A stretch of 64,000 nt of DNA from NCBI GenBank assembly GCA_963717185.1, contig CAVQVY010000038.1, positions 24,565 to 88,564 on the forward strand, written 5' to 3'. Shown piece after piece: positions 32,181-63,933 of the stretch (the first letter of the stretch is position 1; each line of letters begins with the position of its first letter). The translations under genes were made by a program, and so were the position numbers. Origin of the DNA: Candidatus Dormiibacterota bacterium. GTDB taxonomy: Bacteria; Chloroflexota; Dormibacteria; Aeolococcales; Aeolococcaceae. The notes beneath the pieces are model-generated. The model saw nothing but the letters and a program-made list of their open reading frames with translations, was not told the origin of the DNA and made no database searches.

Positions 32181-32381
32181 TCGATGACTCCCGCGCATTG
32201 TTCGATGACAAAAAGATACTAGTTGTAATCAATTAAATATGTCAATGTTCGGCCCCCGGCGGGCGCCACCCAAGAAGTGTTTGTGTGCACCGGGCGACTG
32301 GCCTTCAAGAAAGTGGCCGGCGGACAATATCGACAGGACCGTGGCCGATAGCAAAGGACTGACAAAAGAGCCGCCAAGAAG

Positions 32382-34528: not shown

Positions 34529-34577
34529 GGAGTGTTAGAAATATTTGCCTCTGTTGCCCAATAGCTAGGAGATAGAC

Positions 34578-35915
34578 ATGCTGAGGAAAGTGGAATGGCA
34601 GTTTTTCTCTTCCCTGATGTTTCTTGTGCAATTGATGGTGGCTCCTGTCAGCTTGTGGTCCCAGGCTCCTCCCGTAACCCGGACCTTGGCGATTCGCGCC
34701 GGTCACTTGTTCGATCCGAAATCGGGCGCGATCGTGTCGAATCAAATCGTGCTTATCAGTGGCGACAAGATTGTCGATGTTGGTCCCCCCGATCGAGTTC
34801 AAGTTCCAAGTGATGCAAACGTTATCGATCTCGGTCAGGCGACCTTGCTCCCCGGGCTAATCGATGGTCACGTTCACCTCACTGACGACCAAGGGGGTCT
34901 GCAGCATCAAATGTTGGTCGGGCTGAACAGCGCTACCAGGAGCCTGAATGCCGGCTACACAACCCTCGTCGCAATGGGCTCTCATGGCGGCGGTTACGCG
35001 GATGTAGAGCTTAAAAGAGGCATCGAGAGCGGCCTTGTTCGAGGACCGCGCATCATCACCGCCGGCCCGCTGCTGCAGATTACCACCCCAGGAAGCGCCG
35101 TGTTCCCTTTGGAGTTCAAACCGTTTGTCGCTGACCTGATCGCAAACGGTCCTGAAGAGATGCGGGCGGCTGTGCGAGAACTGGCTCACTATGGTGTTGA
35201 TCACGTGAAGATCATTACCACCGGCCCGTTCTATTTCAAATCCGATGGAACGATGGTCAATCAAGCACTTTTTAGTCTCGAAGAAATAAAAGCGGTCGTG
35301 GATGAAGCGCATCGCCGGGGCCTGTGGGTCGCCAGCCATTCTTACGGAGGAGACGGGCTAAAATGGCCGCTCGAAGCGGGCGTTGATAACATTCAACATG
35401 CGGTTGCCGCAGATGATGCGGACATAAAAACTTTCGTGAACAAGAAGCTTCCGCTGACCGTCACTACGTTGGATATGCGTCAGGACGAACCGGGGGACCT
35501 CAAGCGTTTCGCGCCGTACAGCCGGTTTCGACTCATGGAACAGACCTGGAAGAAGCTCTTAGCGGCGGGAGTCATCCTTGGCTTTGGGAGCGGAGCCGCG
35601 CCGCCTCCGGGGAGGGTATACAACCTGGAATGCAATTGTTCCCATGGAGTCCAAGGTGAAATGTTTCCGCTTTACGTGAAATGGGGCACCAGTCCTTTAT
35701 ATGCGCTGCGGATGGCGACCACTGTAAATGCCCAAATCCTTCATATGGAGGACAAACTCGGCACCATCGAAAAAGGAAAATTTGCGGACATCATCGCTGT
35801 CTCGGGAGATCCACTACAGGATATCAGCGAGCTGCAGCGGGTGAAGTTCGTGATGAAGGGCGGCGAAACCATCCGAAACGATTTCGCGGCGCACGGGATG
35901 ACGGCTTCGCGCTGA
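34578..35915 (+). CDS. Secreted amidohydrolase-family metallohydrolase
   Basis: A signal-like N-terminus is followed by LLPGLIDGHVHL (HxH metal motif). The C-terminal part is GKFADIIAVSGDPLQDISEL. An AGGAGA RBS is present. Confidence 0.8.
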   Translation: MLRKVEWQFFSSLMFLVQLMVAPVSLWSQAPPVTRTLAIRAGHLFDPKSGAIVSNQIVLISGDKIVDVGPPDRVQVPSDANVIDLGQATLLPGLIDGHVHLTDDQGGLQHQMLVGLNSATRSLNAGYTTLVAMGSHGGGYADVELKRGIESGLVRGPRIITAGPLLQITTPGSAVFPLEFKPFVADLIANGPEEMRAAVRELAHYGVDHVKIITTGPFYFKSDGTMVNQALFSLEEIKAVVDEAHRRGLWVASHSYGGDGLKWPLEAGVDNIQHAVAADDADIKTFVNKKLPLTVTTLDMRQDEPGDLKRFAPYSRFRLMEQTWKKLLAAGVILGFGSGAAPPPGRVYNLECNCSHGVQGEMFPLYVKWGTSPLYALRMATTVNAQILHMEDKLGTIEKGKFADIIAVSGDPLQDISELQRVKFVMKGGETIRNDFAAHGMTASR

Positions 35916-36248: not shown

Positions 36249-36277
36249 TTGACATTCTCCCCGATGTTCACAATACT
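36249..36277 (+). promoter_or_regulatory. Sigma70-type promoter TTGACA-17 nt-AATACT with AT-rich upstream tract (unit P1)
   Basis: Read directly: TTGACA at 36249-36254 and AATACT at 36272-36277. TTTTATTA lies upstream. An ATG follows 7 nt after the -10 element. Confidence 0.5.
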
Positions 36278-36284
36278 GCAGGCC

Positions 36285-36365
36285 ATGTCTAGCTATTGCT
36301 TTTACGCCTGTAGGTGCTGCGTGGTTTGTTGTCACCAGCAGTGTCTTTTGCCAACGGCGAGCTAG
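36285..36365 (+). CDS. Candidate leaderless Cys-rich micro-ORF P1 (26 aa): MSSYCFYACRCCVVCCHQQCLLPTAS
   Basis: My own translation. It has 7 Cys codons in 26, including two tandem pairs. There is no room for a Shine-Dalgarno sequence. It is too short for the ORF track. Confidence 0.4.
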   Translation: MSSYCFYACRCCVVCCHQQCLLPTAS

Positions 36366-36368
36366 ACG

Positions 36369-36410
36369 ACCCTGACACCTTAGTTCGAGCAGTCAGGGTT
36401 CTTCCTTTGG
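36369..36410 (+). terminator. Hairpin ACCCTGAC-N15-GTCAGGGT followed by TCTTCCTTTGG (weak intrinsic terminator or attenuator)
   Basis: An 8-bp perfect stem starts 3 nt after the P1 stop. The T tract is interrupted, so terminator strength is uncertain. Confidence 0.3.
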
Positions 36411-36547
36411 TATCCTCCTAGTTCTTCGTTGGCTCCCAGTCATTTGCTTTGATCTGCTGCTTGATCTGCATATCAGCGCTTTGGCGTCGGGGCGAATTAT
36501 CTGCTGCCCGACTCAGAGCGAATCTCACCAGGAGAGTGTATTGAGCT

Positions 36548-37360
36548 ATGAGGACTCGTTTCGCTTTTCCTAGTTTAGCCAGCAATCGCCCATGGCAAGC
36601 CGGCAGCAGTGGCATGCGGGGCGTGCGAATGGCGGTCTTATTTTTGTGCTTGCCGGCAACGGTTCTGGGTCAGTCCAAGCCAGCTTCTCAGATTCCGCGT
36701 GCTGCCGATGGTCACCCCGATCTTTCCGGGTTCTGGCAGGTGATAAGCTCCGCGGACTGGAACATTCAGGATCATTCAGCCGAAAAGGGAGTTCCCGCTG
36801 GACAAGGGATTGTAATTGGCAACGAAATTCCCTACCAGTCCTGGGCCGCTGCGAGGAAGAAGGAAAACTATGAGCACCGCGATGCAATGGACCCAAAAGC
36901 AAAATCCTATGTCCCCGGCGTCCCACGGATCACATACACATCGTTTCCTTTCCAAATCGTTCAGACGCCAAACGAAGTGGCAATTCTCTACGAGTATGTC
37001 CACGCTGTTCGTCATCTCTACACTAGCAGGCCCCAACATCCGGCCGGGCACATTGACTTCTGGCTGGGCGATTCACGGGGACATTGGGAGGCTGACACAC
37101 TGGTTGTTGACGTCACGGATTTCAATGATTCTTCGTGGTTCGATCACGCGGGCAATTTCCACAGCGACGCGCTGCACGTCGTTGAACGTTATACCTTCAT
37201 TGATCGGGATCACATCGATTACCAGGCCGCGATTGAAGACCCTAAGGTCTTTACCAAGCCTTGGAAGATCGATGTTGTTCTCTACCGCCATGTGGAGAAA
37301 AACTTCCAGCTACTCGACTATGAAGGGTATGCCTTCGACTATGAAAAATATTATCCATAG
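36548..37360 (+). CDS. Secreted hypothetical protein, paralogue A (PDLSG.W / GDSRGHWE.DTLVVDV family)
   Basis: Signal-like MAVLFLCLPATVLGQS. The motifs GHPDLSGFWQ, IPYQSWAA, GDSRGHWEADTLVVDVT and FTKPWK are shared with the next gene. The start is uncertain (36548, 36614 or 36629). Confidence 0.7.
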   Translation: MRTRFAFPSLASNRPWQAGSSGMRGVRMAVLFLCLPATVLGQSKPASQIPRAADGHPDLSGFWQVISSADWNIQDHSAEKGVPAGQGIVIGNEIPYQSWAAARKKENYEHRDAMDPKAKSYVPGVPRITYTSFPFQIVQTPNEVAILYEYVHAVRHLYTSRPQHPAGHIDFWLGDSRGHWEADTLVVDVTDFNDSSWFDHAGNFHSDALHVVERYTFIDRDHIDYQAAIEDPKVFTKPWKIDVVLYRHVEKNFQLLDYEGYAFDYEKYYP

Positions 37361-37462
37361 CCGCAAATCTTCTTCGTCGAAAAACTGAGTCAACCTGACT
37401 GAACTAGCGGTCCTTCCGGCAACGGGATCGAGCCCACAGTTGCCGCTTGGAGAGAGGATGCC

Positions 37463-38368
37463 ATGAGCGTTCGATCGATTCGCATGACAGTCGTCGGTTC
37501 CCTAGTAGCGGCGGTATTGTCTTTTGCAGTGCCTGTTATTTTCTCCCAGGAGCAAACATCATCTGCCACAGCCGAAACCCGCACTCCCGATGGCCAGCCA
37601 GATATTCAGGGAATCTGGCGGGCCAACCCTGGCGGCGACACCTATGACCTCACGGGTAATAAGCCGCGTCCGGACGTTGGGCTACAAGGCAATGGAAGGC
37701 CTCGGCCGGCGACACACCGGATTGTCGATGGGACCTCCGAAGGCAATATCCCGTACCAGTCCTGGGCCGAAGAAAAACAGAGAGATACCGAAGAACACGC
37801 TGATGACCCCATTAAACCGGAATACGTAGACACGCAGGCGCATTGCCTGCTCGAAGGACCAGGCCGCGTCTTTATCCATTCCGGCTTTCAGATACTCCAA
37901 GCCCCGGGGTATGTCCTTTTCTTTTTTGAAGAAAATGACGAGTCTCGGATCGTTCCTCTCGACGGCCGGCCGCATGTGGGTGAAGATATAAAGCTGTGGC
38001 AAGGAGACTCGCGCGGTCATTGGGAAGGCGACACACTGGTGATCGATGTCACCAATGTAAAGGCGAAATCAAGACTGGACATGGTGGGCGATTTCTACAG
38101 CCCGTCGGCTCACTTTGTCGAGCGGCTGACGCGCGTTGATGACAAAACGATCAACTATGAAGCGACGGTCACCGATCCTACTGTCTATACAAAACCCTGG
38201 AAGCTTACGGCCCGATTCGTGCGCAGATTTCCGAACGGATCTGACTACGAGATGTTTGAAGACGCGTGCCATGAAGGTGAGCGGAGTGCAGATAATCTGG
38301 TGATTCCGGAAGGCATCGCGAAGGAGAATGCTGAGAAGGCCAAGTCTGCCTCCAGGAAGCAACCATAG
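37463..38368 (+). CDS. Secreted hypothetical protein, paralogue B of the same family
   Basis: A GGAGAGAGG RBS is present, and the signal reads VGSLVAAVLSFAVPVIFSQ. Motifs are GQPDIQGIWR, IPYQSWAE, GDSRGHWEGDTLVIDVT and YTKPWK. It retains two Cys (AHCLLEG, DACHEGE) that paralogue A lacks. Confidence 0.75.
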   Translation: MSVRSIRMTVVGSLVAAVLSFAVPVIFSQEQTSSATAETRTPDGQPDIQGIWRANPGGDTYDLTGNKPRPDVGLQGNGRPRPATHRIVDGTSEGNIPYQSWAEEKQRDTEEHADDPIKPEYVDTQAHCLLEGPGRVFIHSGFQILQAPGYVLFFFEENDESRIVPLDGRPHVGEDIKLWQGDSRGHWEGDTLVIDVTNVKAKSRLDMVGDFYSPSAHFVERLTRVDDKTINYEATVTDPTVYTKPWKLTARFVRRFPNGSDYEMFEDACHEGERSADNLVIPEGIAKENAEKAKSASRKQP

Positions 38369-38613
38369 GCGTAGGGGAAAATGGGGTTCGCTTGAGTTCA
38401 TTCAGGGTTTTGCCAAGGAGCTTTCTAACTGAATCGGGCACAGCTGGCGTACGCGGACCCGTTTGCCTCCTCCGGGCAATCGCGCGCTTCGTTTTTTGGA
38501 TGGCGCGGGTAGACGCTCAGGGAGAAACCAGTGGCAGTTCGAGGCCACCAAGCGAGTGCGCCTTTCGAGTGGACCGAAAACCCAACCCCGATCAGCTTAA
38601 CAGGACATGACCG

Positions 38614-39039
38614 TCAGTTTTTATCTGACGGCGAGTCGCTACCCGTGATCTCACCTGCAGAAGTTGCAAGAAGAAAGTCTCGCCCGTCGGGCAACCTGAT
38701 ACTCGCGCCGTTTGCAGTCGGTGTGCCATTCTTAGCCCGATAGCCCTTAACGGTGACTTCGACGCCGGTCGGAAAGTCGGTTTTCCTAACCCCTTTTCTC
38801 AAGAGTGCGCCTGGTCCGCCGGTCTCAATCGCCCAAGTAACGACTTGGCTCTGTTCATTTTTCACGTCGACATAAATCCACCCATGGGGATTCACAAAGT
38901 CAAATTTCTTTAGGGTTCCTTTCAAGGTGACTGGCTGATTGATGTCGAACTCTGAGGTGAAAGAATGATGTGCGAATGCCGGCAGTGCGGCCACCAGAAT
39001 GCTCACAACAACTGGTAAGCGAGACAGCTTTCGTTTCAT
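38614..39039 (-). CDS. DUF6152-like small secreted protein
   Basis: A TAAGGAG RBS precedes the ATG at 39039. The signal peptide ends in PAFA, followed by HHSFTSEFDINQPVTLKGTLKKFDFVNPHGWIYVDV. This is the pattern I recall for DUF6152. Confidence 0.7.
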   Translation of the reverse strand: MKRKLSRLPVVVSILVAALPAFAHHSFTSEFDINQPVTLKGTLKKFDFVNPHGWIYVDVKNEQSQVVTWAIETGGPGALLRKGVRKTDFPTGVEVTVKGYRAKNGTPTANGASIRLPDGRDFLLATSAGEITGSDSPSDKN

Positions 39040-39451
39040 GGAATGCTCCTTAACTTTCATGGCCATAAGTTCTCGACTCATTACTCGAATATCTGACTCC
39101 GGGAACGAAAAGACTGCGCTGCCTTCAAACCACTGCGGGTAGCGCCGAGGGACATCGAACTATCGGTTGATTACCTCCACCGGGGTGGCCGCGGATTCTG
39201 AGCGGGCGTTCGCGTCCGCTCCTCTCGGACCGCTGATGTGACCCAGTCGGCGAATCATGCCTACCTCACCTCAAGTTGAATCGCGCCCACGCAGAATCGC
39301 CGCTACATGCCTGCTCGAAAAGATAATCGACTGTGTGCCACCGGAGATGATTCGCGCGACGTCTCGTCGACTTTCGGCCGTCACCTGGTGCCCATCACCG
39401 TCGGCGAGCTTTCCGTATTGCTGGGCCCCCCGCGAGTAATCCCATTGGCCG

Positions 39452-42400
39452 CTAGAAAACGACACGCACCGCTAACTCGCCTTGCTGTAATGGAAGCGCA
39501 GCGGTGAACGTTCCGAACGTGCCACCGGCGGTCGCCGACCCCGTAGATGCATTGGCCTGCTGTGTGGTACCAACTCCGCCATAGTTATTTGTACCGAGTA
39601 CGTTGAAGAGCTGACCGATGACTTGCAGCTTGAATCTTTCGCCGAGATCGATGTCTTTGCTGACGCGTGCGTCCAGCTGGTTGTAACGGTTGCTCTCAAT
39701 TTGTGACCGCGGGATCGGAGCCAGGCCTTTTGTAGCCCGCCACGCGTTGACGATTGCCAAAGTCTGGCCGATGTCGCGGGAGTTCTTACCCGTTCCCGGC
39801 ACGTAGTCGGTAATCGCTCCATCGTTGTTGAGGTCACCTCCAGCAAGCGCGCTGAAGGGCAATGAACTTCGCAAAGTCCAAATTGCCCCGACCGTGATCC
39901 GGTAACGCAGCAGCACCGAGCCGCTAACCACCAGGTTGTGACGACGGTCGGTGACAGCAAGTCCGTCATCTAACGAGGGATGGTAGAAGTCGGTGATGGC
40001 AGTGGTGCTGTTGTAGTTGTCAGTTTGTTTGGCCAGGGTGTACGAAACGACGTACTGGTAGCGTTTCGAGAAGCGTTTATCGAGACGAACGAAAAGTCCG
40101 CTGTAGTTGTAGTTTCCTATGGGCGCCGATTCATTGATTTGGCCGTAGGCCGGTAGAGGTCGTAGGCCGGTAAGCGGATTGGGCGTGTTGACGTTTTCGC
40201 TTACGACCAAGCCCTTCATATGCGTGAACAGGCCTTCTACGCTGAGTGCAAAGTCGGACTTGAACTGCCGCGCCACGCCGAGGTTGTAGGTAAAAACCTG
40301 TGGGTTATAAACGTTGTTAGCGTTGGTGCTGGTGTTGAGGGCTGATTGCGGATGAGCGGCGAGATATTGTTGGTAGGTTAGTCCATTATATGGATCTGGC
40401 CACGGGATAGGATTAGCGGTGGTACCTGTGATTGTGATCTGGGTTTGGCGGAGTGTTGTGATTTCGCCTTCGAATGCATTGTCTTGAAGATTTACATTAA
40501 CAATCCCAAATCCGCCCCGCACCACGGTGCGGCCGTCCTTCAAAGGGTCCCAAGCGAAGCCCATCCGCGGTGCAAGGTTATCGTAATCTCCGTGCCCCCC
40601 GAACTTAACGTAGGGCAGAGGCACTGGGTACAGCGACGCGCTCAGGTGATTCCGCCATACACCTGTTTGCAAATCGTAGCGGACGCCGAGATTGAGGGTC
40701 AGATTGGGCCGAACCTTCCACTCATCCTCGAAATAGAATCCCTGCATCAAGTTTTCGTCTTGCCAGTTGAGTTGTGGGAAGTTCGTGGTGAATTTAATTG
40801 GGGTGGCGCTGGCCACAGTCGTCCAGTTGAAGTTCGGATTTTGAGGATCAAAGGTTGGACTCGCCGCCGTTGGCTGGTAATCCTTCGCGAACGTCCATAC
40901 GCCTAGGGGAGTCGCCGGAGCATCGAGCTTTCTCGGAGTTCTCAGTTCATCCACACCGAATCTGAAGGTGTGCTGGGAGGCGGTCCTCGTCACATCGTCA
41001 CGGACCTCCTGATAGAACGGGTGAAACTCGGTGCTTTGATAGAATCCCCAAGTCAGATCCGGGAAATTGATCTGAATGCTGCCGTTGGCATATTGTGCGG
41101 GCGTGTTGAAATGGGGAGCCGTGCTGAGCTGCCAGGATTGAGCGACCTGCGCGGCGAACTGATTTACAGTCTTATCCGAAATCAACCAGCTATCGACCAG
41201 GGCGTATGTCCAGGACCTGACGCTTGAATCTCCGCTGCCGCTGAAAGCCGCAGCGTCTCCCCCATTGGCATTCTGAGCGTAGTTGGTGGCTGGGTTCTGT
41301 TCGGAAAATCGGAGAAAAGCACTGTTTTTGGGGCTGAATTGATAGTCGAGCCTTCCGAAATATTCTCGGAACAGAGCTCCGCCCCGGAAGCTGCCTTCGA
41401 GCGGCGCAAAGGCCGCAGTCACAGCGGGGCTTTTGCCGCCTCCCGGGGACACCGTGAAGTATTCCTGGTCATTTAGCTCTTCAAACGAAAACAGGAAATA
41501 AAGCCTGTCGTTCTGGATCGGGCCACCGATTTCGACACCATATTGGTTACGGCTGAAGGGTTGGATAGGGAATGCGGTTGGGTTGGAGTTATACTGCGCT
41601 TGAGTAATCGTATCCACTCGGTTGATGTAGTGGTCGCGGAAGTACTCGAAGGCCTCCCCATGTAGCTGGTTCGTACCGCCTTTCGAGGCCACCGTAACAA
41701 CGCCGGCCGCCCTTCCGCCATACTCAGCAGGGGCCTGGCCAAGAATCACCTTAAATTCCTGGACCACGGCCTCTTGCACCAGGTCGCGCGGGTCGCCATT
41801 CCCCGAGATAACGTTGCTCAGGCCATCCAGCAAATAGTTACTTCCAGCTGCATTGACTGCGCCAGCGCCAATGCTCGCCAGGGGTCTTGATACTCGTCCG
41901 ACATCGGGCGTTGTGCCTGGCTCCAAGAGGGCGAGCATCGCGACCTGGCGCTGCGTAATTGGTAAGGAATCGATCTGCTGCCGCTCCACCACCTCAGATG
42001 CCACCTCGCTGCTAGCGATCTCTACGACCGGGGCCTCGGATCGAACGGTAACCGTCTGTTCCACGCTACTAAGCTTGAGCGTGAGGTTCTGCGGAACCTC
42101 AAGGCCGATTGTGAGAACAAGGTCCTGTATCTCAACGGCTGCAAAGCCTTGTCGTTCGGCCTTCAAGTCGTAAGTGCCGGGAGGCAGCGGAGCCACGCGA
42201 TACTTTCCATCGTCTCCAGTTAGGCTTGTTCGCGTGAGCCCTGTTTCCGGATTTCTTACCGTCACGGTCACTCCTGGTTCTAGGGCGCCTTGCGCGTCGG
42301 TGATAGTTCCCAAGATGACAGCATCGGTCGACTGCGCCCCGGCCGAAACCACGCGCATAAAAATCCACACCGCTAGCACCGCAAATTGAAAGGCCGAATC

Positions 42401-42508
42401 CTCCAACAAGACGCGCCCGCGCCATGCCGCTTGCTTATAGAAACCGTCAGGCCGGTGCTGATTGAACTTTCCGAGGGTAAGTAGCTGGAAACTCTTGACT
42501 GCTGACAT
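39452..42508 (-). CDS. CarboxypepD_reg/TonB-dependent receptor (1018 aa from ATG 42508), Cys-free
   Basis: An AGGAGA RBS lies 8 nt before the ATG at 42508. The track start at 42679 lies inside an intrinsic terminator, so I reject it. GTITDAQGALEPGVTVTVRNPETGLTRTSLTGDDGKYRVAPLPPGTYDL is followed by plug and barrel. The C-terminus ends in ELAVRVVF. I found no Cys in the whole ORF. Confidence 0.85.
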   Translation of the reverse strand: MSAVKSFQLLTLGKFNQHRPDGFYKQAAWRGRVLLEDSAFQFAVLAVWIFMRVVSAGAQSTDAVILGTITDAQGALEPGVTVTVRNPETGLTRTSLTGDDGKYRVAPLPPGTYDLKAERQGFAAVEIQDLVLTIGLEVPQNLTLKLSSVEQTVTVRSEAPVVEIASSEVASEVVERQQIDSLPITQRQVAMLALLEPGTTPDVGRVSRPLASIGAGAVNAAGSNYLLDGLSNVISGNGDPRDLVQEAVVQEFKVILGQAPAEYGGRAAGVVTVASKGGTNQLHGEAFEYFRDHYINRVDTITQAQYNSNPTAFPIQPFSRNQYGVEIGGPIQNDRLYFLFSFEELNDQEYFTVSPGGGKSPAVTAAFAPLEGSFRGGALFREYFGRLDYQFSPKNSAFLRFSEQNPATNYAQNANGGDAAAFSGSGDSSVRSWTYALVDSWLISDKTVNQFAAQVAQSWQLSTAPHFNTPAQYANGSIQINFPDLTWGFYQSTEFHPFYQEVRDDVTRTASQHTFRFGVDELRTPRKLDAPATPLGVWTFAKDYQPTAASPTFDPQNPNFNWTTVASATPIKFTTNFPQLNWQDENLMQGFYFEDEWKVRPNLTLNLGVRYDLQTGVWRNHLSASLYPVPLPYVKFGGHGDYDNLAPRMGFAWDPLKDGRTVVRGGFGIVNVNLQDNAFEGEITTLRQTQITITGTTANPIPWPDPYNGLTYQQYLAAHPQSALNTSTNANNVYNPQVFTYNLGVARQFKSDFALSVEGLFTHMKGLVVSENVNTPNPLTGLRPLPAYGQINESAPIGNYNYSGLFVRLDKRFSKRYQYVVSYTLAKQTDNYNSTTAITDFYHPSLDDGLAVTDRRHNLVVSGSVLLRYRITVGAIWTLRSSLPFSALAGGDLNNDGAITDYVPGTGKNSRDIGQTLAIVNAWRATKGLAPIPRSQIESNRYNQLDARVSKDIDLGERFKLQVIGQLFNVLGTNNYGGVGTTQQANASTGSATAGGTFGTFTAALPLQQGELAVRVVF

Positions 42509-42663
42509 GAACTGATCTCCTGGCTTGAGCTGATCGGTTACCTCCAGGAGACTGGTGGGATGGCCGGAGTCGATTTTGCCTCCCCGGTCGGGGTCGGCTA
42601 GGGTGATGTCTCTGCGCTTTGTCGCCCGGCGGGTAGATAGCTCTGTGGGATTCTTGCGTCGGA

Positions 42664-42701
42664 AAAACAAAAAACCCACCTGCCGAGTGTTTGGCGGTGG
42701 G
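42664..42701 (-). terminator. Rho-independent terminator (CCCACCGCC-N8-GGCAGGTGGG then TTTTTTGTTTTT) downstream of micro-ORF P2 and upstream of the TonB receptor
   Basis: Read directly on the minus strand. The stem is 6+3 bp with one bulge, followed by an 11/12 T run. Confidence 0.7.
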
Positions 42702-42731
42702 TCCCTGGGCTACAGATCTTAAATCTAGCTG

Positions 42732-42818
42732 TTAAATTCTGCCCGCCTCAGAGAAGCCACACGCGCCGCATGTACAGCGGTTACAGGCTAGCGCGCGTCT
42801 CCGTGCGGCAAAAATCAT
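42732..42818 (-). CDS. Candidate leaderless Cys-rich micro-ORF P2 (28 aa): MIFAARRRALACNRCTCGACGFSEAGRI
   Basis: My own translation. It has 4 Cys in the pattern C-x2-C-x-C-x2-C. The ATG lies 7 nt after the -10 hexamer. The stop is 30 nt before the terminator stem. Confidence 0.45.
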   Translation of the reverse strand: MIFAARRRALACNRCTCGACGFSEAGRI

Positions 42819-42825
42819 GGAAGAG

Positions 42826-42854
42826 TTTATAGATGGACCGCGGTTGATTGTCAA
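42826..42854 (-). promoter_or_regulatory. Near-consensus sigma70 promoter TTGACA-17 nt-TATAAA (unit P2)
   Basis: Minus strand: TTGACA at 42854-42849 and TATAAA at 42831-42826. An A-rich tract (AATTTGAAAAAGG) lies upstream. Confidence 0.6.
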
Positions 42855-43026
42855 GCGCCTTTTTCAAATTCCAGTAAGGCGTACGTTGTCGCTCTGCTTC
42901 GAGCGTGCACGCAACAGCAGCTAAGCAACCTGAAGTGAATCAGCTTATGCTTCGCGCCACAAGTCGCCGGAGTCTACAAGCGGGCTTTGTCATCAACAAT
43001 CGGGAGACAAACTGAGACAAAACCTA

Positions 43027-43055
43027 TTGACTCGGAGATGGTCGTCTTGTATGGT
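43027..43055 (+). promoter_or_regulatory. Sigma70-type promoter TTGACT-17 nt-TATGGT (unit P3), divergent from P2
   Basis: Read directly. An A-rich tract lies upstream (GAGACAAACTGAGACAAAACC). An ATG follows 8 nt after the -10 element. Confidence 0.55.
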
Positions 43056-43063
43056 CGAATTCC

Positions 43064-43168
43064 ATGCGAGTCGGACTCCAAAGGATTTTACCGGGTGAGC
43101 AGTGTTGTCGCATCCCCTCGTGCGCACCGTGTTCCCTGGTTGTGGGGAGGCTAGTCCGAACGTTCTAA
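43064..43168 (+). CDS. Candidate leaderless Cys-rich micro-ORF P3 (34 aa): MRVGLQRILPGEQCCRIPSCAPCSLVVGRLVRTF (or a non-coding leader/sRNA)
   Basis: My own translation. It has 4 Cys including a tandem TGT TGT. The stop is 30 nt before the terminator stem, the same spacing as in P2. Confidence 0.4.
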   Translation: MRVGLQRILPGEQCCRIPSCAPCSLVVGRLVRTF

Positions 43169-43198
43169 GAACTTTCTTCTAGTCCAAAGGTCTCTTAG

Positions 43199-43239
43199 CC
43201 CACCGCCATAGGTTCATTGGCCGGTGGGTTTTTTCTTTT
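43199..43239 (+). terminator. Rho-independent terminator (CCCACCG-C-CCA loop TGG-C-CGGTGGG then TTTTTTCTTTT) between micro-ORF P3 and yezD
   Basis: Read directly. The 5' arm CCCACCGCC is identical to that of the P2 terminator. Confidence 0.75.
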
Positions 43240-43270
43240 ATGGCCTTGTTTTGTTTCCTTGAGGATTGGG

Positions 43271-43507
43271 ATGACGACGACCAAGTTGAATCCGAAAGTG
43301 GAGGAGCAAACAGCGCGGAACGACAAACTTCCGCCAGACGCAATTGAGTCTTTGCTCCAGAGTGACCAAGGACTTCTGTGGGAAGTGGTTCGGGCACTCA
43401 AAACGATTCAGTATGGCTCAATCGTGTTGACAATTCACAATGGCCAACTGGTCGAGGTTAGTAAAAACATCAGAATTCGCAGAAGTGAACCGAACAATGG
43501 GAAATAA
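43271..43507 (+). CDS. YezD/DUF2292-family small protein
   Basis: A GAGGA RBS precedes the ATG at 43271. ALKTIQYGSIVLTIHNGQLVEVSKNIRIR matches the YGSV.I.I.DG.VVQIE..EK.R signature of DUF2292. Confidence 0.7.
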   Translation: MTTTKLNPKVEEQTARNDKLPPDAIESLLQSDQGLLWEVVRALKTIQYGSIVLTIHNGQLVEVSKNIRIRRSEPNNGK

Positions 43508-43712
43508 TTCCATAGGGTGCTTTACCGTAGGTGGCGGATCTCTAGCAAAAACGGATTGCTTGACAGTACTTTATTCGCGCTCCGCCTTTCCATTTGTGAT
43601 CCCTTCTACTCGGTCGTGTTGTTGTCCCCCACAGCAATAGTGCTGGAGAGCGGGACGCGGGCGTGAGCAGACGACTGTAGCCGCAGGTTCTTCGAAATGT
43701 AACTTCCGCGAA

Positions 43713-43750
43713 GGCCCGTTTCCAGCATCTGGGAGCGGGCCTTTTGTTTT
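43713..43750 (+). terminator. Rho-independent terminator (GGCCCG...CGGGCC then TTTTGTTTT) between yezD and the first membrane paralogue
   Basis: Read directly. The extended imperfect stem is GGCCCGTTTCCAG/CTGGGAGCGGGCC. It lies 38 nt before the ATG at 43789. Confidence 0.65.
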
Positions 43751-43788
43751 GAGTCCATACCTACAGACTTTGGATTTCGGGCGGAACA

Positions 43789-44280
43789 ATGAACCTCATG
43801 CACTTGTGCCAATGGCTTAGCGAGACACCATTCGGAACTTCCATCCGGGAATCGCCATTTGCTTTTCCTTTCATCGAATCCGTTCATGTTCTGGGAATAA
43901 CCCTCTTGGTAGGCACCGTCGCGGTTGTAGATCTGCGTCTTCTAGGTGTGGTGATGAAAGACGAGCAGGTGTCAGAGATCGTGAGCCGAGTGTTGCCACT
44001 AACTTGGTGCGGGTTTCTCATTCAGGTTGTCAGCGGCTTGCTTCTGTTCTGGGCCAAGGCGGACGAATATTACCTTAATCCTGTGTTCCGTCTTAAATTG
44101 CTGCTGCTCCTGCTGGCTGGCCTCAACCCGCTAATCTTTCATTCCACTCTGTATCGAAGCGTTTCGGAGTGGAACGACAAGCAGACGACACCCGTTCTTG
44201 CAAAGGTCGCAGGGCTTTTCTCTTTGACGCTCTGGAGCGGCGTCATTGTCGTGGGAAGGGCCATTGCTTATTTCAAATAG
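43789..44280 (+). CDS. Small 4-TM membrane protein, paralogue 1 (possibly DUF6644)
   Basis: 163 aa. The motifs ...W(L)..TP.G..IR.S...(F)P.IE.VH.L...L.G....VDLRL.G and GRAI(A/G)(Y/F) are shared with the next gene. Confidence 0.65.
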   Translation: MNLMHLCQWLSETPFGTSIRESPFAFPFIESVHVLGITLLVGTVAVVDLRLLGVVMKDEQVSEIVSRVLPLTWCGFLIQVVSGLLLFWAKADEYYLNPVFRLKLLLLLLAGLNPLIFHSTLYRSVSEWNDKQTTPVLAKVAGLFSLTLWSGVIVVGRAIAYFK

Positions 44281-44316
44281 CTTGCCAGAGATTCTCTGCG
44301 AACAAGGCGCTTGCCG

Positions 44317-44793
44317 ATGAGTGTTATCAATTTATTTCAATGGCTCGGGCACACACCAATGGGACTGGCGATAAGGCATTTCACCTGGGGTGTCGCGATT
44401 GTGGAGATGATACACCTTCTGGCCCTCGCGGCATTGGGTGGATCAATCCTGATTGTCGATCTTCGCCTCTGGGGGATTGGACTGAGGCGTCAATCGCCTT
44501 CTCATCTGGCGAAGGAGCTGGCTCCCATCTTTCTGGGAAGCCTCATCGTGATCTTAATTTCGGGTGTGCTGATTCTCTCTGCGGAACCGATGAAGTGCTA
44601 TTACAGCGACGCTTTTCGGCTCAAGATGCTTTTGCTTTTGTTGGCTATCTCGTTCCATTTCACTCTCCACAGCAAGGCGGTGAAGTCGGCGTCGGGACAG
44701 ATTCACAGCATCTGGTCGCGATCGGCGGCGGCTTTGTCCCTGGCGTTGTGGCTGGCAGTGGGTCTCGCGGGCAGGGCGATCGGTTTTCTGTGA
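44317..44793 (+). CDS. Small 4-TM membrane protein, paralogue 2
   Basis: About 158 aa. The regions FQWLGHTPMGLAIRHF...IVEMIHLLALAALGGSILIVDLRLWG...GRAIGFL parallel the preceding gene. Confidence 0.65.
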   Translation: MSVINLFQWLGHTPMGLAIRHFTWGVAIVEMIHLLALAALGGSILIVDLRLWGIGLRRQSPSHLAKELAPIFLGSLIVILISGVLILSAEPMKCYYSDAFRLKMLLLLLAISFHFTLHSKAVKSASGQIHSIWSRSAAALSLALWLAVGLAGRAIGFL

Positions 44794-44854
44794 GAGCAAG
44801 TGGTAACCGATGTGAATCCTTTGAACTGCTGATCGATGAAGGGAGTTGCAACCT

Positions 44855-46035
44855 ATGGGAATGAGATTTTATTTTCGGTGGGCGACGATTCTTCTTACCT
44901 TGCTGGGCCTCTCAGGTTCGGTTCCTGCGCAGTCGGTGGCGGGTCTTTGGGAGGGCCATGTAAACATCGACGGATTGAGTATTCCATTTCAGCTCGAGAT
45001 TTCAGGGAACGGATCTGCCGTGAAAGGCGCATTCCTTAATGGAGACGAGAAAGTCACCTCCACTGGCGGCCGCTTTGAAAACGGTGCTGTGATTCTAGAT
45101 TTTGACGAGTACGCCGAAACCCTGCAAGCGACTCTGGAAAACGGCCAATTGACAGGCATGATCGAGGGTCGATTTGGCCCGGGGTCGCGCAAAGCGCTAC
45201 CGTTTGAGGCGAAACCTTTTGTTCACGCTCCGGAATCGGTGTCGAAAACGATCCCCTCGATTGACGGTATCTGGGAGATTGAGAACCACAGCCCCAAAGG
45301 CGAATCGGCATGGCGCTTCATTGTCCGCCAGGCCGGTGGCGATGTTTCTGCGGCAATTTTGCGGGTAGATGGCGACACGGGTACTCTGACCGGCCACTAC
45401 CACGACGGCAAATTCGCGCTGAGCCATTTCTCGGGCGAGCGCCCCTACTTGGTCGACGTAACTCCGCAAAGCGAAGGAACGATCCTGCTGACGCTTAGCG
45501 ATCGTTCCGGTAAGAAAGATCTGACCGCCTACCGCCCCGCCGCAGCGCGAGCCAAAGGACTGCCTGAACCAACCGACCCAAACCAGCACACGAAGGTTAA
45601 AGATCAAGCTCAGCCCTTCGAGTTCAAGTTTCGCGATGTCGACGGACACGTGGTTTCCAATACGGATTCCCGTTTCCGTGGAAAGGTGGTGCTGGTCAAC
45701 GTCACAGGTAGTTGGTGCCCCAATTGCCACGACGAAGCTCCATTTCTCGCGGGGCTTTATCGCAAATACCGCAATGCAGGACTGGAAATCGTGGCGCTCG
45801 ATTTTGAAGAGCCCGAGCAGCTTGAGGATCTGACGAGATTGCGGGCTTTCGTCGCGCACTATGGAATCGAATACACCGTGCTAGTGGGCGGAACCCCTGA
45901 GCAGGTCAACCAAAAGATTCCGCAACTGGCGAATCTGAACGCCTGGCCCACGACCGTCCTGGTGGGGCGGGATGGGCTCGTCAAAGGAGTTCACGTCGGA
46001 TTCGCTAGTGCCGCCAGCGGTGAGTTTAACAAAGT
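44855..46035 (+). CDS. TlpA-like thiol:disulfide oxidoreductase with large N-terminal domain; 3' end cut off at the compositional junction
   Basis: A signal-like N-terminus is followed by GKVVLVNVTGSWCPNCHDEAPFLAGLYRKYRNAGLEIVALDFEE...AWPTTVLVGRDGLV, a thioredoxin fold with CxxC. After ...ASGEFN (about 46035) the same reading frame runs into unrelated high-GC sequence. Confidence 0.7.
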
Positions 46036-46129
46036 ACGACGAAGCAGCCCGCACCCTGCCCCAACCGGAGACGCAGACCCAGGAGCGTCCGCCGTCGATC
46101 GCGGTCACGACGAACCAGCGGACGCCGGC

Positions 46130-46384
46130 GATGATCCCTTCCGGGTCACCCGGCTCATTGCCAAGCAGGGCACGGTGGGCTTCGCTTGGCGCGTGTACAG
46201 CCTCGGGCGACGCTTCGCCCACCGCGAGGTCACCATCGTGGCCGAGGACGACGTGGTGCGCTTCTATCTCGGCGATGTCCTGGTCCGAACCCACCCACGC
46301 GGCGAGCACGGAAGCTACGTCAAAGCGACCATACGAACGGAGGTGATCCGCCGAAAAACCCTGCCTCGAACAGCTGTCAATTGA
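46130..46384 (+). mobile_element. Transposase/integrase (rve-type) C-terminal fragment
   Basis: FRVTRLIAKQGTVGFAWRVYSLGRRFAHREVTIVAEDDVVRFYLGDVLVRTHPR resembles the beta-barrel C-terminal domain of IS481/IS21/IS3-type DDE transposases. No catalytic core is present. Confidence 0.45.
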
Positions 46385-46683
46385 GGGCTGTGTCAAATCT
46401 GACCCGGTACTACTTCGTCAAGCGGGTGCCGGAATCAAACACGGCCGCCACCCCATGAGCCGGCGTTATTGCGTCGGTCTCGCACCCTGTGCGCGCCGAG
46501 CCTCCCGGAGGGACCGCGAACGGTCAGCCTGACCGTGGCTTACCGCCCGACGTCGCCAGTTGCCGCCGTCGTGTCGATTTCACCGCCTGGGACGGGTTCT
46601 CGAGGGGTAAGAAAACACCAAGCTCCCCGCGAGTCGATGTAACGCGCCTCGCGAAACCCGTGTGACTTCACCCAGCGGAGGAG

Positions 46684-46903
46684 ATGGACATGCTTAGTCT
46701 GAATCGTGAGAGCCCGCCGCGGGCGCTGCTTACTGTCCGCGAGGTGGCGTCGATGCTGGGCTGCGGACGAACGCTGGTCTACGACTTTATCGGCGCTCGG
46801 GAGCTTCCGGTGGTGAAAGATGAGACACTGAACTCGCGTACCAATCGACGCCGTCGACCAGTTCATACGAGGTCACCTCAGGGAGACGGAGTGTCCGCCA
46901 TGA
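46684..46903 (+). pseudogene. xis: Excisionase/MerR-like HTH DNA-binding protein (Xis), one frameshift
   Basis: After a GGAGG RBS the ORF reads LLTVREVASMLGCGRTLVYDFIGARELPVVK. The expected continuation TRVPIDAVDQFIRGHLRETECPP with its stop is in another frame. The indel lies at about 46815-46840. Confidence 0.55.
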
Positions 46904-47185
46904 GCGCTCGCCCCGAACCGCCGCGCGTGCGAGACCTTCGAGCTCGTGCAGTTTCGCTGTCGCGAATGGTACGCAGCAGCAGGCTCCTTTCCGACGACAT
47001 CGGCTGAAGGCCGCAGAGCCACGCGCTCGTCACCGAGCGGGTGCGCCGAACTCCGGCTTGATATCAAAACTGGTATCAAAACAAGCGAACAGAGGCGAAA
47101 ATCAGCGGACTGTCGACGCCCGCGTTGACCCCGTTTTGAATACAAGACGGCCACCGGCGACCACCGGCCGGAACGGAGCCCTGTC

Positions 47186-47232
47186 TGGCTCATAACCCCA
47201 GGGTCGCAGGTTCGAATCCTGCCCCGCCCACC
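47186..47232 (+). other. 3' about 47 nt of a tRNA-Met(CAU)-like gene (anticodon loop, T arm, acceptor 3' strand); att-site remnant, not an intact tRNA
   Basis: TGGCTCATAACCCCAGGGTCGCAGGTTCGAATCCTGCCCCGCCCACC contains the loop CTCATAA, the T arm GCAGG-TTCGAAT-CCTGC and the acceptor CCCGCCC. Upstream there is no D arm and no complementary 5' acceptor strand. Confidence 0.55.
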
Positions 47233-47272
47233 CGCGCGATTCCTCACAAGGCCGCAGCCGGGAGCGGGCACT

Positions 47273-47313
47273 CACCGGCAGCGGGGCGGGACAGCTGTCC
47301 CGCCGGCTGCCGG
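47273..47313. terminator. Long GC-rich hairpin (CCGGCAGC-GG-GGCGGGACA GC TGTCCCGCC-G-GCTGCCGG)
   Basis: Near-perfect inverted repeat read directly. It lies directly downstream of the small minus-strand ORF at 47321-47476. It has no T tract, which fits an Actinobacteria-style stem-only terminator. Confidence 0.4.
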
Positions 47314-47320
47314 GGCTGGA

Positions 47321-47476
47321 TCAGCTCTGGGAGTCGCCGCTGCGGCGGCGCAGGCGGCGTGCCACGCCGCGGACCAGCCTGCTACCGCGGCGGTAGCCAC
47401 CTCGGCGGGTCGTAGCCGCGAGCATGTACTCCTGCTCGCGGATCTGAGCCATCTCATACAACTGTGTGTTCATCAT
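47321..47476 (-). CDS. Small Arg-rich protein (51 aa): MMNTQLYEMAQIREQEYMLAATTRRGGYRRGSRLVRGVARRLRRRSGDSQS
   Basis: My own translation. A GGAGG RBS lies 7 nt upstream of the ATG ATG. It is followed by the hairpin at 47273-47313 and is divergent from the CGNR gene. It is below the ORF-track size cutoff. Confidence 0.4.
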   Translation of the reverse strand: MMNTQLYEMAQIREQEYMLAATTRRGGYRRGSRLVRGVARRLRRRSGDSQS

Positions 47477-47589
47477 TTCGAGACCTCCTGCGTCACCGAC
47501 GAAACCTTGTCACTGGTGATACTATATACCCGATCCGCGTCACCTGTCAAACCGTAACAGGGGTGACGCAACACTAGGACTTTCCCGTC

Positions 47590-48220
47590 ATGGACGACCC
47601 CCCAGCAACCCGACAGCCGGCACCCGCCGCACTGGCGCTGGTGCAGGATTTCGTCAACACGGCGGAGCTCCCCGGCGGCTACGACGAGCTCGCCGACGTC
47701 GCCGCGACGGTGGACTGGCTTGGCGCCCACGGCTACCAGGTGCAGCCCGATGACACCCAGCACCGCCGCATCGTCGAGACCCGCGAGCACCTGCGGACGC
47801 TGATCGCGGTGAACTCGGGCCAGGAGCTGCCGCCCACCACCGCGGCTCGCCTGGCCAAGCTGCTCGACGCCGCGGCCGTCCACCCCGTGGTGGCCGAGGA
47901 CGGGGTTCGCCTGGCGTTCGACCGCGCGCGGCGTGGACGGGTTCCTCGCCGCGCTGCTCGCCGCGCTGGTGCAGGGCACCATCGACGGCAGCTTCCGCCG
48001 GCTCAAGGTGTGCCGCTCCGACACCTGCCAGTGGACCTTCTACGACAACTCCAAGAACGGCTGCGGCGCCTGGTGCAGCATGCGTTCGTGCGGCAGCAGG
48101 GCCAAGGCGAAGGCGTATCGCGAAAGGCTTCGCCAGGATGCCGGCGGCGGCGAGACGCCATCGCTCGACGTGACCAAGCGCCGGCAGCGGAGGCCGAGAC
48201 TGCTCAGGCGAGCGACGTAG
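47590..48220 (+). pseudogene. CGNR zinc-finger (ABATE-domain) putative regulator, one frameshift
   Basis: The N-terminus ALALVQDFVNTAELPGGYDELADVAATVDWL is in the first frame. VDGFLAALLAALVQG...RLKVCRSDTCQWTFYDNSKNGCGAWCSMRSCGSRAKAKAYRER (the CGNR motif) is in the second frame. The indel lies at about 47921-47935. Confidence 0.75.
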
Positions 48221-48956
48221 GTGCCCGCCGGCCGGGCCGCCTCGTTCGGTTCTGCCGCGGACGCGTATGAGCGGGGCCGGCCGTCGTACCCGGCGGCGGC
48301 GCTCGACTGGCTGCTGCCACGTCACGCGCGACGGGTGCTCGACCTCGGCGCCGGCACGGGCAAGCTGACCCGGCAGCTCCGTGACCTCGAGCTCGACGTG
48401 GTCGCCGTCGAGCCGTCGGCCGGCATGCGAGAGCAGCTGGCGCAAGCTGTTCCCGGCGTCGCCCTCCTGGACGGGACCGCCGAGTCGATCCCGCTCCCTG
48501 ACCACAGCGTCGACGCGGTGCTGGTGGCGCAGGCCTGGCACTGGGTGGACCCGGCGCGCGCCGTGCCCGAGGTGGCGCGAGTCCTCACACCGCGCGGCCG
48601 GCTCGGGCTCGTCTGGAACATCCGCGACGAACGCGTGGGCTGGGTCGCGGACCTGGGCCGCACCATGCACCGCCACGGCGAGGAGGACGGCGGCGATCCT
48701 GCTCCCGTCGTGGGTCCGCCGTTCGGACCGCTGCAGCGCCACCAGGTCGAGTGGGGCTACCGCCTCAGCGCCGCGGCGCTGGTCGACCTGGTCGCTTCGC
48801 GCAGCTACGTGATCACGCTCCCCTCCCCACAACGCACCGCGCTCCTTGCCGACGTGCGCCAGCTTCATCGACACACATCCGAGCCTCGCCGGCAAGCCCG
48901 AGCTGGTGCTGCCGTACGTCACTCAGTGCTACCGCGCGGACCTGGCCGCCTCGTGA
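48221..48956 (+). pseudogene. Class I SAM-dependent methyltransferase, C-terminal frameshift
   Basis: RVLDLGAGTGKLTRQL...VDAVLVAQAWHWVDPARAVPEVARVLTPRGRLGLVWN is the methyltransferase core. After LLADVRQ (about 48860-48868) the plausible end IDTHPSLAGKPELVLPYVTQCYRADLAAS with its stop (48956) is in another frame. Confidence 0.8.
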
Positions 48957-48975
48957 TCCACGAAGCAGGCGTCGC

Positions 48976-49488: not shown

Positions 49489-49556
49489 GGGCGCCGCACA
49501 AATCACCCGATGGGGTGATGCGCTGACCCGCATAGGGGCTGCGACACTAGCCCGGG

Positions 49557-54317: not shown

Positions 54318-54333
54318 GCGGCTGGAGGATCCC

Positions 54334-54807: not shown

Positions 54808-54808
54808 C

Positions 54809-56046: not shown

Positions 56047-56102
56047 CGGGCGCGCCTCGCGTCGGCGGGGCTGCGGCAGCGTCAGTGGTGGGCGGAACGA
56101 AG

Positions 56103-56669: not shown

Positions 56670-56709
56670 CAGCCAACCGTACAGCGCTGAGCTGACGCCA
56701 CGACGCGTT

Positions 56710-63928: not shown

Positions 63929-63933
63929 GCGAA

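Follow-up and report, generated by a model that had tools for sequence, protein, structure and literature searches.

What do the poorly characterised envelope proteins of a compact gene cluster do together, and under which condition are they expressed? The question is raised by positions 36249 to 46035 of a stretch of 64,000 nucleotides (nt), hereafter the window (GenBank assembly GCA_963717185.1, contig CAVQVY010000038.1, positions 24,565 to 88,564, filed under Candidatus Dormiibacterota bacterium). We consider it reasonably likely that this locus is part of a cysteine/sulfur-starvation regulon, encoding an envelope apparatus that aids the acquisition of sulfur from sources other than free sulfate, under the control of short leader open reading frames (ORFs). 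The parts of this reading differ in strength. A link of the locus to sulfur or cysteine starvation is very likely and control by leaders rich in Cys codons, judged from the sequence, is likely, while the evidence is evenly balanced on an uptake and handling role of its receptor and secreted proteins. A TonB-energised pathway that scavenges sulfur when cysteine is short had been the original prediction for this DNA, and it is supported by conserved Cys-rich leaders, by synteny with sulfur genes in relatives, by a sulfur-poor protein composition and by a link of the YezD/OscA family to sulfur starvation in the literature. The proximity of YezD-family genes to sulfate transport genes, named in the prediction, is indeed on record: in Pseudomonas corrugata, oscA adjoins genes for sulfate transporters and is part of the response to sulfur starvation, according to the part of PMC2996968 that relates Viti et al. 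2009.

The genes of the locus are as follows (lengths in amino acids, aa; scores against Pfam gathering thresholds).

36548-37360, plus strand: secreted paralogue A, 270 aa, no Pfam or NCBIfam match
37463-38368, plus strand: secreted paralogue B, 301 aa, same superfamily as A, no Pfam or NCBIfam match
38614-39039, minus strand: DUF6152 protein (PF19649; 104.1 bits, threshold 27), secreted
39452-42508, minus strand: outer-membrane barrel of the TonB-dependent receptor (TBDR) type, 1018 aa, 0 Cys, 5 Met
43271-43507, plus strand: small DUF2292/YezD-type protein, 78 aa (33.6 bits, threshold 22)
43789-44280, plus strand: DUF6644a (PF20349), four-helix inner-membrane protein, above threshold 27
44311-44793, plus strand: DUF6644b (PF20349), paralogue of DUF6644a, above threshold 27
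44846-46030, plus strand: secreted TlpA/ResA-like redoxin with a WCPNC motif and thioredoxin fold, cut by the contig end

The window consists of two unrelated sequences joined at ~46.03 kb. The G+C content is ~0.57 up to this point and ~0.71, actinobacterium-like, from 46031 to 64000. An independent assembly contig of 9.9 kb stops at the same base as the low-G+C part, and the junction is therefore a contig end and not a rearrangement. Past ~46030 the redoxin ORF continues in frame into a match to a Mu-transposase C-terminal domain (PF22483), which is part of the second piece. The low-G+C part, ~46 kb long and carrying the locus, is from a Terriglobia-type acidobacterium. The 3' end of the locus is thus cut at 46.03 kb, as had been noticed earlier, although what cuts it is the end of a contig and the loss to the redoxin gene is small: the protein is 77% identical to an orthologue of 411 aa and lacks only the last 23 residues.

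Cys-rich leader units

The original prediction distinguished three transcription units. We find four leader units, since the DUF2292 gene and the DUF6644-redoxin operon each have a Cys-rich short ORF and a terminator of their own. One architecture is used four times: a TTGAC(A/T) box, a 17-nt spacer, a -10-like hexamer and, 7-8 nt further on, the ATG or GTG start codon of a Cys-rich short ORF. Runs of two or three Cys codons (CC or CCC in the peptide) are present in the short ORFs of all four units. The elements of the units are listed below.

36249-36277, plus strand: promoter-like site of the A-B unit; TTGACA, 17 nt, AATACT, 7 nt to ATG
36285-36365, plus strand: leader short ORF A, MSSYCFYACRCCVVCCHQQCLLPTAS; 7 Cys in 26 residues
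36369-36400, plus strand: hairpin P2 after short ORF A, weak T-run
36426-36433, plus strand: conserved box of unit A, TCGTTGGC; pairs with the 3' end of the short ORF at 36350-36357, GCCAACGG
42826-42854, minus strand: promoter-like site of the TBDR unit; TTGACA, 17 nt, TATAAA, 7 nt to ATG
42732-42818, minus strand: leader short ORF of the TBDR-DUF6152 unit, MIFAARRRALACNRCTCGACGFSEAGRI
42664-42702, minus strand: intrinsic terminator of the TBDR unit, ACCCACCGCC...GGCAGGTGGGT followed by T6GT5
43027-43055, plus strand: promoter-like site of the DUF2292 unit; TTGACT, 17 nt, TATGGT, 8 nt to ATG
43064-43168, plus strand: leader short ORF of the DUF2292 unit, MRVGLQRILPGEQCCRIPSCAPCSLVVGRLVRTF
43197-43240, plus strand: intrinsic terminator of the DUF2292 unit, CCCACCGCC...GGCCGGTGGG followed by T6CT4
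from 43560, plus strand: promoter of the DUF6644a/b-redoxin unit; TTGACA, 17 nt, poor -10 hexamer CGCCTT, 7 nt to the GTG at 43596
43596-43640, plus strand: leader short ORF of the DUF6644a/b-redoxin unit, (M)IPSTRSCCCPPQQ
from 43641, plus strand: candidate antiterminator of the DUF6644 unit, beginning directly after the stop codon, GTGCTGGAGAGCGGG
43710-43744, with a T-run to 43752, plus strand: 16-bp intrinsic terminator of the DUF6644 unit

The position of the -10 hexamer, 7-8 nt before the start codon here and 6-7 nt in orthologues, would imply transcripts without a 5' leader. A strong hairpin with a T-run follows the short ORF in the TBDR, DUF2292 and DUF6644 units, the first two of these terminators being paralogous copies (21 nt, 90% complementary). 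In unit A the T-run of hairpin P2 is weak and its role as a terminator therefore uncertain; the hairpin shows 83% pairing across 5 orthologues, one pair being compensatory.

The leaders are conserved in relatives, whose loci carry the prefix L below. Orthologues of leader A occur in five loci (L087/88, L089, L091, L154) with 26 codons, fixed Cys positions and a P(T/A)AS C-terminus, and the -35 box and spacing of this unit are kept in four orthologous loci. The TBDR leader has an orthologue in L090 that reads MMIFDAQKVTRACCTCTTGVCVSSGAGRLPV, where the terminator also has its orthologue. Those of the DUF2292 leader comprise 34 codons in L217 and L216 and 29 codons in L214. The CC(C)P motif of the DUF6644 leader recurs upstream of DUF6152/DUF6644 operons in seven loci, among L087-L091, L214, L216 and L217. 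Most extensive is L217, a Candidatus Acidiferrales-type contig with four leaders of the same build (3148-3252, 6093-6170, 8478-8558 and 8708-8779), which precede a DUF2292 gene, a luciferase-like monooxygenase gene, a B-like gene and a long operon from DUF6152 to a MoeZ-like gene. As the genes at the end of this operon are CysM-, Mec-, CysO- and MoeZ-like, the control would there reach cysteine synthesis itself.

We scanned both strands for a -35 box, 16-18 nt, a hexamer, 5-9 nt, and an ATG or GTG opening a short ORF with at least 3 Cys. The 46-kb acidobacterial part holds exactly four matches, all of them in the intergenic DNA of this locus, which totals ~2 kb. Rfam models searched against 33-47 kb revealed no riboswitch, T-box or other known RNA, their sole match being a chance miRNA. 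A search of metagenomes with the conserved 3' end of leader A returned 120 stretches, of which L154 is the only true orthologue, the others being chance matches.

Several alternative pairings would allow the position of a ribosome to be sensed. In the DUF6644 unit, folding indicates that the strand following the stop codon, GUGCUGGAGAGCGGG, can pair with the 5' arm of the terminator; it is masked with a ribosome at the stop codon and free with a ribosome on the CCC run. In the TBDR unit a strand within the short ORF pairs with the terminator 5' arm, around a hairpin that holds the stop codon. In unit A two alternative partners are available to the 3' end of the short ORF (36350-36357), namely the 5' half of the same ORF and the conserved box at 36426-36433. 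The helix with the box forms in all orthologues once a ribosome is positioned on upstream Cys codons, and 8 of 8 pairs are kept in 5 of 5 sequences, with one compensatory AU-to-GC change and two one-sided changes; controls slid along the sequence reach at most 47% pairing.

The TBDR start is placed at the ATG at 42508 and not at the GTG at 42679, because the longer ORF crosses a terminator. TBDR and DUF6152 had been assigned to one promoter. The leader unit in front of the receptor stands, but co-transcription of DUF6152 has become less certain in view of the 412-nt gap between the genes (39040-39451). The corresponding spacer in close relatives measures 62-77 nt. Reading of the 412 nt revealed no Cys-rich short ORF and no obvious promoter.

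Gene neighbourhoods in relatives

We compared 80 genome loci around homologues of A with the window proteins by phmmer, within 10 kb. These loci are mostly from Bryobacterales and Vicinamibacterales, with Methylobacter, Methylobacillus and other Proteobacteria also represented; Methylocystis is represented by the metagenome loci L002-L004. The co-occurrence presumed in the original prediction is found: B lies within 10 kb of the A homologue in 77/80 loci, DUF6152 in 58/80, a TBDR of the window type in 34/80 and a DUF6644 pair in 7/80, four of these pairs being followed by a cytochrome c'-like protein. Many loci contain several DUF6152-A-B triads.

Synteny with sulfur genes is seen in L001, L087, L088, L090, L091, two JGI contigs, L214, L217 and L219. 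The identities in the loci closest to the window amount to 72-75% for A, ~70% for DUF6152 and 69-84% for DUF6644b. Three arrangements can be distinguished. One consists of DUF2292, TBDR, DUF6152, an ABC ATPase, an SsuA-family binding protein (161 bits), a permease, a four-domain rhodanese, a CDO-like cupin, B and A, with the DUF6644 pair divergent. In another, in L001, a TauD-like dioxygenase stands beside families of the set. The last is an operon in L217/L218 that groups DUF6152, two DUF6644 genes, the orthologue of the window's redoxin, TauE, a PALP protein (CysM-like), a JAB protein (Mec-like), a ThiS-rhodanese fusion, a ThiS protein (CysO-like) and a ThiF-rhodanese fusion (MoeZ-like), with a luciferase-like monooxygenase and DUF2292 nearby. 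By analogy, the genes of this operon are probably what lies past the cut redoxin gene of the window. The rhodanese and the CDO-like cupin of the relatives are without signal peptides.

Similar neighbours are found in more distant loci, namely a CDO-like protein and a rhodanese in L005 and a monooxygenase in L060. A small rhodanese-like protein without Cys is encoded between TBDR and DUF6152 in 8 loci (L007, L011-L014, L017 and L025 from Bryobacterales, L036 from Methylobacter). The protein of L013 has 156 aa, an N-terminal segment resembling a signal peptide and an apparent Ser in place of the catalytic Cys (VSNHAARG); from its sequence, this type of domain may bind anions rather than act as a catalyst.

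Other neighbours were noted. PQQ-dependent dehydrogenase genes lie at most 10 kb from triads in 11/80 loci (L084, L069, L013, L061, L042, L051, L077, L033, L072, L050, L048); in L084 such a gene comes immediately after a B-type gene, both lying on one strand. In L002-L004 (Methylocystis), L027, L036, L060 and L080, which represent Proteobacteria and one acidobacterial locus, a protein of ~200 aa whose C-terminal part carries CxxCH is encoded after the DUF6644 pair. Its match to cytochrome c' is weak (24.6 bits versus 26.5), and the neighbour hints at a role of DUF6644 in electron transfer. L214 and L217 encode, after DUF2292, a large secreted Peptidase_M14 protein (878-880 aa), with the TBDR next in L214; peptide-bound sulfur may thus be one source. 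A cluster of 331-aa neighbours (30 loci) was discarded as an apparently antisense ORF of B: its representative, which matches no Pfam model, overlaps a B match from the other strand.

Sulfur amino-acid content

The proteins of the set are poor in sulfur. Cys and Met together make up 0.44% of mature A, 1.47% of mature B, 0% of mature DUF6152, 0.49% of the TBDR, 0% of DUF2292 after the initiator and 0.82% of the redoxin (the two catalytic Cys and one Met), as compared to 2.97% in the other ORFs of the acidobacterial part. Homologues of A have two family-conserved Cys, which are both present in 41/80 and both absent in 39/80; the window A sits in the Cys-free subclade, which lost both. The composition fits proteins made under sulfur starvation, and we regard it as moderate evidence.

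Family assignments and features of the proteins

Searches with Pfam and NCBIfam models confirm the gene positions and the families DUF6152, TBDR, DUF2292, DUF6644 (twice) and TlpA-like that had been proposed for the locus; A and B match no model. The secreted and the membrane pairs are indeed paralogous, with 34% identity between A and B and 33% between DUF6644a and DUF6644b. Contrary to the earlier view that every component is extracytoplasmic or membrane-bound, the DUF2292 protein has neither a signal peptide nor a transmembrane segment, which places it in the cytoplasm. It scores 30.7 bits with the NCBIfam OscA equivalog model NF033785, below the cut-off of 85, and by this measure is an OscA relative and not an equivalog. 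The TBDR matches OMP_b-brl_4 with 308 bits (threshold 30) and an N-terminal CarboxypepD_reg domain with 66.8 bits (threshold 32.3), while its Plug domain reaches 13.9 bits against a threshold of 23.9.

Paralogue A has more than 8,000 close homologues, and a search with the A/B profile (E at most 1e-3) collects 16,990 representatives of 50%-identity clusters, none of which matches a Pfam model. No NCBIfam model covers the superfamily either, and its members are called hypothetical in every source naming one. A PDLSGxW motif is near-invariant in the family. The AlphaFold2 model of A (confidence score pLDDT 83) is a beta-barrel with helices whose best PDB matches are FABP/SAHS, avidin and nitrophorin barrels, all of them weak (E = 5e-3, TM-score 0.3-0.5); taken with the motif, the model suggests that A and B are lipocalin/calycin-like binders of a small ligand. 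Profile searches of PDB sequences with A/B and with DUF6644 found no relative.

The mature DUF6152 protein begins with HHSF..E.D. Among 53 homologues, the His-His that had been pointed out in the original prediction is invariant, as are the Glu and an NPH motif, and the nearby Asp is nearly so. This arrangement looks like a metal or ligand site. The structural model (pLDDT 82) is a generic OB fold and matches no metallochaperone. The first helix of DUF6644 has one His that is invariant in both paralogue types and a Glu that is nearly so; a Lys, a Trp and an Arg are also invariant across both types, and there is no conserved Cys. A relationship of DUF6644 to CopD was considered and rejected, as hhalign of its profile with E. 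coli CopD (YebZ) yields a probability of 0.1%. Literature searches on DUF6152 and DUF6644 returned nothing.

The DUF6644 pair scores 45.1 and 69.6 bits against the gathering threshold. The redoxin matches AhpC-TSA with 51.4 bits and Redoxin with 46.2 bits, and stays below the NCBIfam cut-offs for ResA (70.7 versus 170) and TlpA (44 versus 230). Its N-terminal region of ~250 aa is without a family match, carries two GxW motifs and is kept in orthologues of 377-411 aa.

Upstream of the locus the window encodes a second CarboxypepD_reg-type TBDR (28275-30920), a LysR-family regulator (31239-32198, minus strand), an HMGL-like lyase (32382-33329), a family III CoA-transferase (33326-34528) and a secreted amidohydrolase (34578-35915). 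We found no connection of the genes at 28275-35915 to the sulfur set. The amidohydrolase was considered as a member, Methylocystis having one upstream too, and was dropped because the two are non-orthologous and share a short N-terminal match only.

Proposed mechanism and alternative explanations

From gene content, leaders, synteny and composition we infer a regulatory logic, an uptake role and tentative roles of the individual proteins. When Cys-tRNA is plentiful, ribosomes would traverse the leaderless Cys-rich short ORF and downstream expression would be off, through the intrinsic terminator in the TBDR, DUF2292 and DUF6644 units and, in the A-B unit, more likely through an RNA switch of which the 3' end of the short ORF is a part. 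Under cysteine shortage, a ribosome would stall on the Cys codons, the alternative pairing would form and the genes would be expressed. The TonB-dependent barrel would then bring a sulfur-containing compound across the outer membrane; A and B (lipocalin-like) and DUF6152 (OB fold) would bind it or pass it on in the periplasm, and the DUF6644a/b membrane pair with the redoxin would contribute a redox step at the inner membrane. Transport into the cytoplasm and conversion to cysteine would be the task of the genes seen in relatives, that is, an SsuABC-type transporter, TauE, TauD- or luciferase-like oxygenases, rhodaneses and CysO/CysM/Mec/MoeZ-like proteins, which in this genome are probably located past the contig end.

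Several observations weigh against this reading. Within the window itself no sulfur-handling enzyme and no inner-membrane importer is visible. The -10 hexamers are weak, and the whole-window count of the leader pattern, 4, is not above that in dinucleotide shuffles (2.4 +/- 1.6), so that only the location and the conservation of the leaders carry weight. Minimum-energy folds with a masked ribosome footprint never remove the terminators, the antiterminator pairings emerge only in folds that omit the terminator 3' arm, and the folds give no clear antiterminator picture for the DUF2292 unit; the switch models therefore rest on co-transcriptional reasoning. The low content of Cys and Met is partly a property of the families, with 0% in DUF6152 of Methylocystis and 0.6-1.25% in other TBDRs. 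Finally, recognisable sulfur genes are rare in the 80 loci, where PQQ dehydrogenases, cytochromes c and propeller proteins often adjoin; the function of the DUF6152-A-B triad may accordingly be broader.

An alternative that we consider unlikely, though less so than the others below, is a sulfur-sparing set: TBDR, DUF6152 and A/B would serve a general, non-sulfur uptake, like their numerous paralogues in other places, and the locus would supply low-sulfur isoforms when Cys is scarce, cutting the sulfur cost of an abundant envelope system. The triad is present in multiple copies per genome, mostly without sulfur genes nearby, the window A belongs to the Cys-free subclade, the proteins are very low in Cys and Met, and control by Cys leaders is equally compatible with such a set. 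The saving would, however, be very small, since the ancestral proteins hold only 2 Cys and 1-3 Met, and a direct role in sulfur metabolism better fits the close relatives, in which one operon combines the set with SsuABC-type and rhodanese genes or with TauE and CysM/CysO-like genes; in distant lineages, moreover, neighbours of the rhodanese-like, CDO-like and monooxygenase kinds are found again. A maintenance of envelope thiols would apply when Cys, and with it the low-molecular-weight thiols, is scarce: the redoxin and the DUF6644 pair would hold thiols of the periplasm in the reduced state or remove reactive species of sulfur or oxygen, and the other proteins would be accessory. This explanation has in its favour that a CxxC thioredoxin-fold protein shares an operon with the membrane pair, that further thioredoxins are encoded nearby in L219 and that AhpC/TSA is among the Pfam matches. 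It leaves the TBDR, the lipocalin-like pair, the SsuABC-type and TauD genes and the CysO-pathway genes of the same operon unexplained, and DUF6644 offers no conserved Cys for a thiol relay; we regard it as improbable.

Slightly more improbable still is the second hypothesis of the original prediction, acquisition or handling of a metal such as copper, with DUF6152 binding the metal through its His-His, a CopD-like DUF6644 and a redoxin that prepares the Cys ligands of a cuproprotein. The invariant N-terminus and NPH motif of DUF6152 and the TlpA/ResA type of the redoxin would suit this proposal, as would the presence of the module, followed by a cytochrome c'-like protein, in metagenome-assembled genomes of methanotrophs and methylotrophs and the frequent PQQ dehydrogenases and cytochromes c. 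Beyond the His-His and the redoxin type, which had suggested it, the copper hypothesis gained no support: ~10 neighbourhoods with listed Pfam matches contain no CopA, CopC, Sco, PCuAC, multicopper oxidase or metal regulator, and no copper gene is among the recurrent neighbour clusters checked in the 80 loci. The failure of the DUF6644 profile to align with CopD and the purely generic OB-fold matches of DUF6152 also speak against it, and both the Cys-codon leaders and the synteny with sulfur genes are left unexplained.

A bolder version of the sulfur-starvation reading, to which we give a small chance, is that the locus represents an undescribed assimilation pathway for hydrophobic zero-valent sulfur (elemental S8, organic polysulfanes) and that leaderless ORFs with Cys codons, combined with intrinsic terminators, constitute a widespread 'ribulon' control in Acidobacteriota. 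In this pathway the A/B barrels could hold hydrophobic sulfur in the periplasm, with the N-terminal domain of the redoxin perhaps forming two further barrels. The CxxC of the redoxin could open the sulfur species through thiol attack, and DUF6644a/b, with one invariant His per subunit, could be a haem-type electron conduit that re-reduces the redoxin. Sulfane sulfur could then pass through a TauE-type channel to rhodaneses, a CysO-type thiocarboxylate and cysteine, and sulfate reduction would be bypassed.

In soil, Acidobacteria rank with the most abundant bacteria, and the sulfur there is mostly organic or in other forms than free sulfate. To our knowledge, how Acidobacteria acquire sulfur is largely unknown. 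The locus gives DUF6152, DUF6644, DUF2292, the subfamily of TlpA-like redoxins and the A/B superfamily a testable physiological context, cysteine starvation; as far as the searched literature shows, the assignment of DUF6152, DUF6644, the A/B superfamily and the redoxin subfamily to a cysteine-starvation regulon is new.

Comparison with known systems

The leader control proposed here resembles, by analogy, the 'Cys ribulon' of mycobacteria, where leaderless polycysteine short ORFs are experimentally established cysteine-responsive attenuators (Canestrari et al., bioRxiv 10.1101/834739). Both systems have unannotated short ORFs with runs of Cys codons that start at or beside the (here predicted) transcription start, several independent units per genome in front of sulfur or cysteine genes (in L217 including CysM/CysO/Mec-like genes) and conservation of some non-Cys residues. 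They differ in phylum, Acidobacteriota here and Actinobacteria there, and in the apparent mode of shut-off: strong hairpins with T-runs in 3/4 units point to termination, whereas the ribosome-binding site is sequestered in the mycobacterial case. The genes controlled here are mostly poorly characterised envelope proteins, and the system is known from its sequence. Our literature search found the mechanism of cysteine-responsive leaderless polycysteine ORFs discussed for mycobacteria only. The locus thus suggests a cysteine-responsive leader principle that is new for Acidobacteriota, present four-fold in one locus and coupled to intrinsic terminators, and hence that ribosome-sensed Cys-codon leaders, so far demonstrated only in mycobacteria, arose in a second phylum with several units side by side.

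Classical attenuation of trp, his, leu and thr operons likewise employs a short ORF rich in the regulating codon, followed by a terminator, with the ribosome position setting an alternative pairing. Here the regulating amino acid would be cysteine, the leaders are predicted to be without a 5' untranslated region, and the alternative structures are simpler, the DUF6644 unit having a single antiterminator strand that abuts the stop codon. The genes under control would be, in the proposed role, those for uptake and not for biosynthesis.

Sulfate-starvation regulons of Proteobacteria comprise ssuEADCB, tauABCD, ats/sft and oscA-sbp-cysTWA under the control of CysB, Cbl or SftR. They share with the loci described here an SsuA-family binding protein, a TauD-like dioxygenase and a luciferase-like monooxygenase (in the neighbourhoods of relatives), a DUF2292/OscA-type protein, a TonB-dependent receptor and a sulfur-poor composition of the induced proteins. 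Those described are without DUF6152, A/B and DUF6644. No LysR-type activator is evident at the locus, where control seemingly proceeds through leader ORFs, and cysteine synthesis in the relatives is apparently of the CysO-thiocarboxylate type. The redoxin, in turn, has the thioredoxin fold, the secreted location and the W-C-x-x-C site of TlpA, ResA and DsbE. It differs from them in falling far under the NCBIfam cut-offs, in its additional N-terminal domain of ~250 aa and in a neighbourhood without CcdA/DsbD, cytochrome-maturation or Sco genes.

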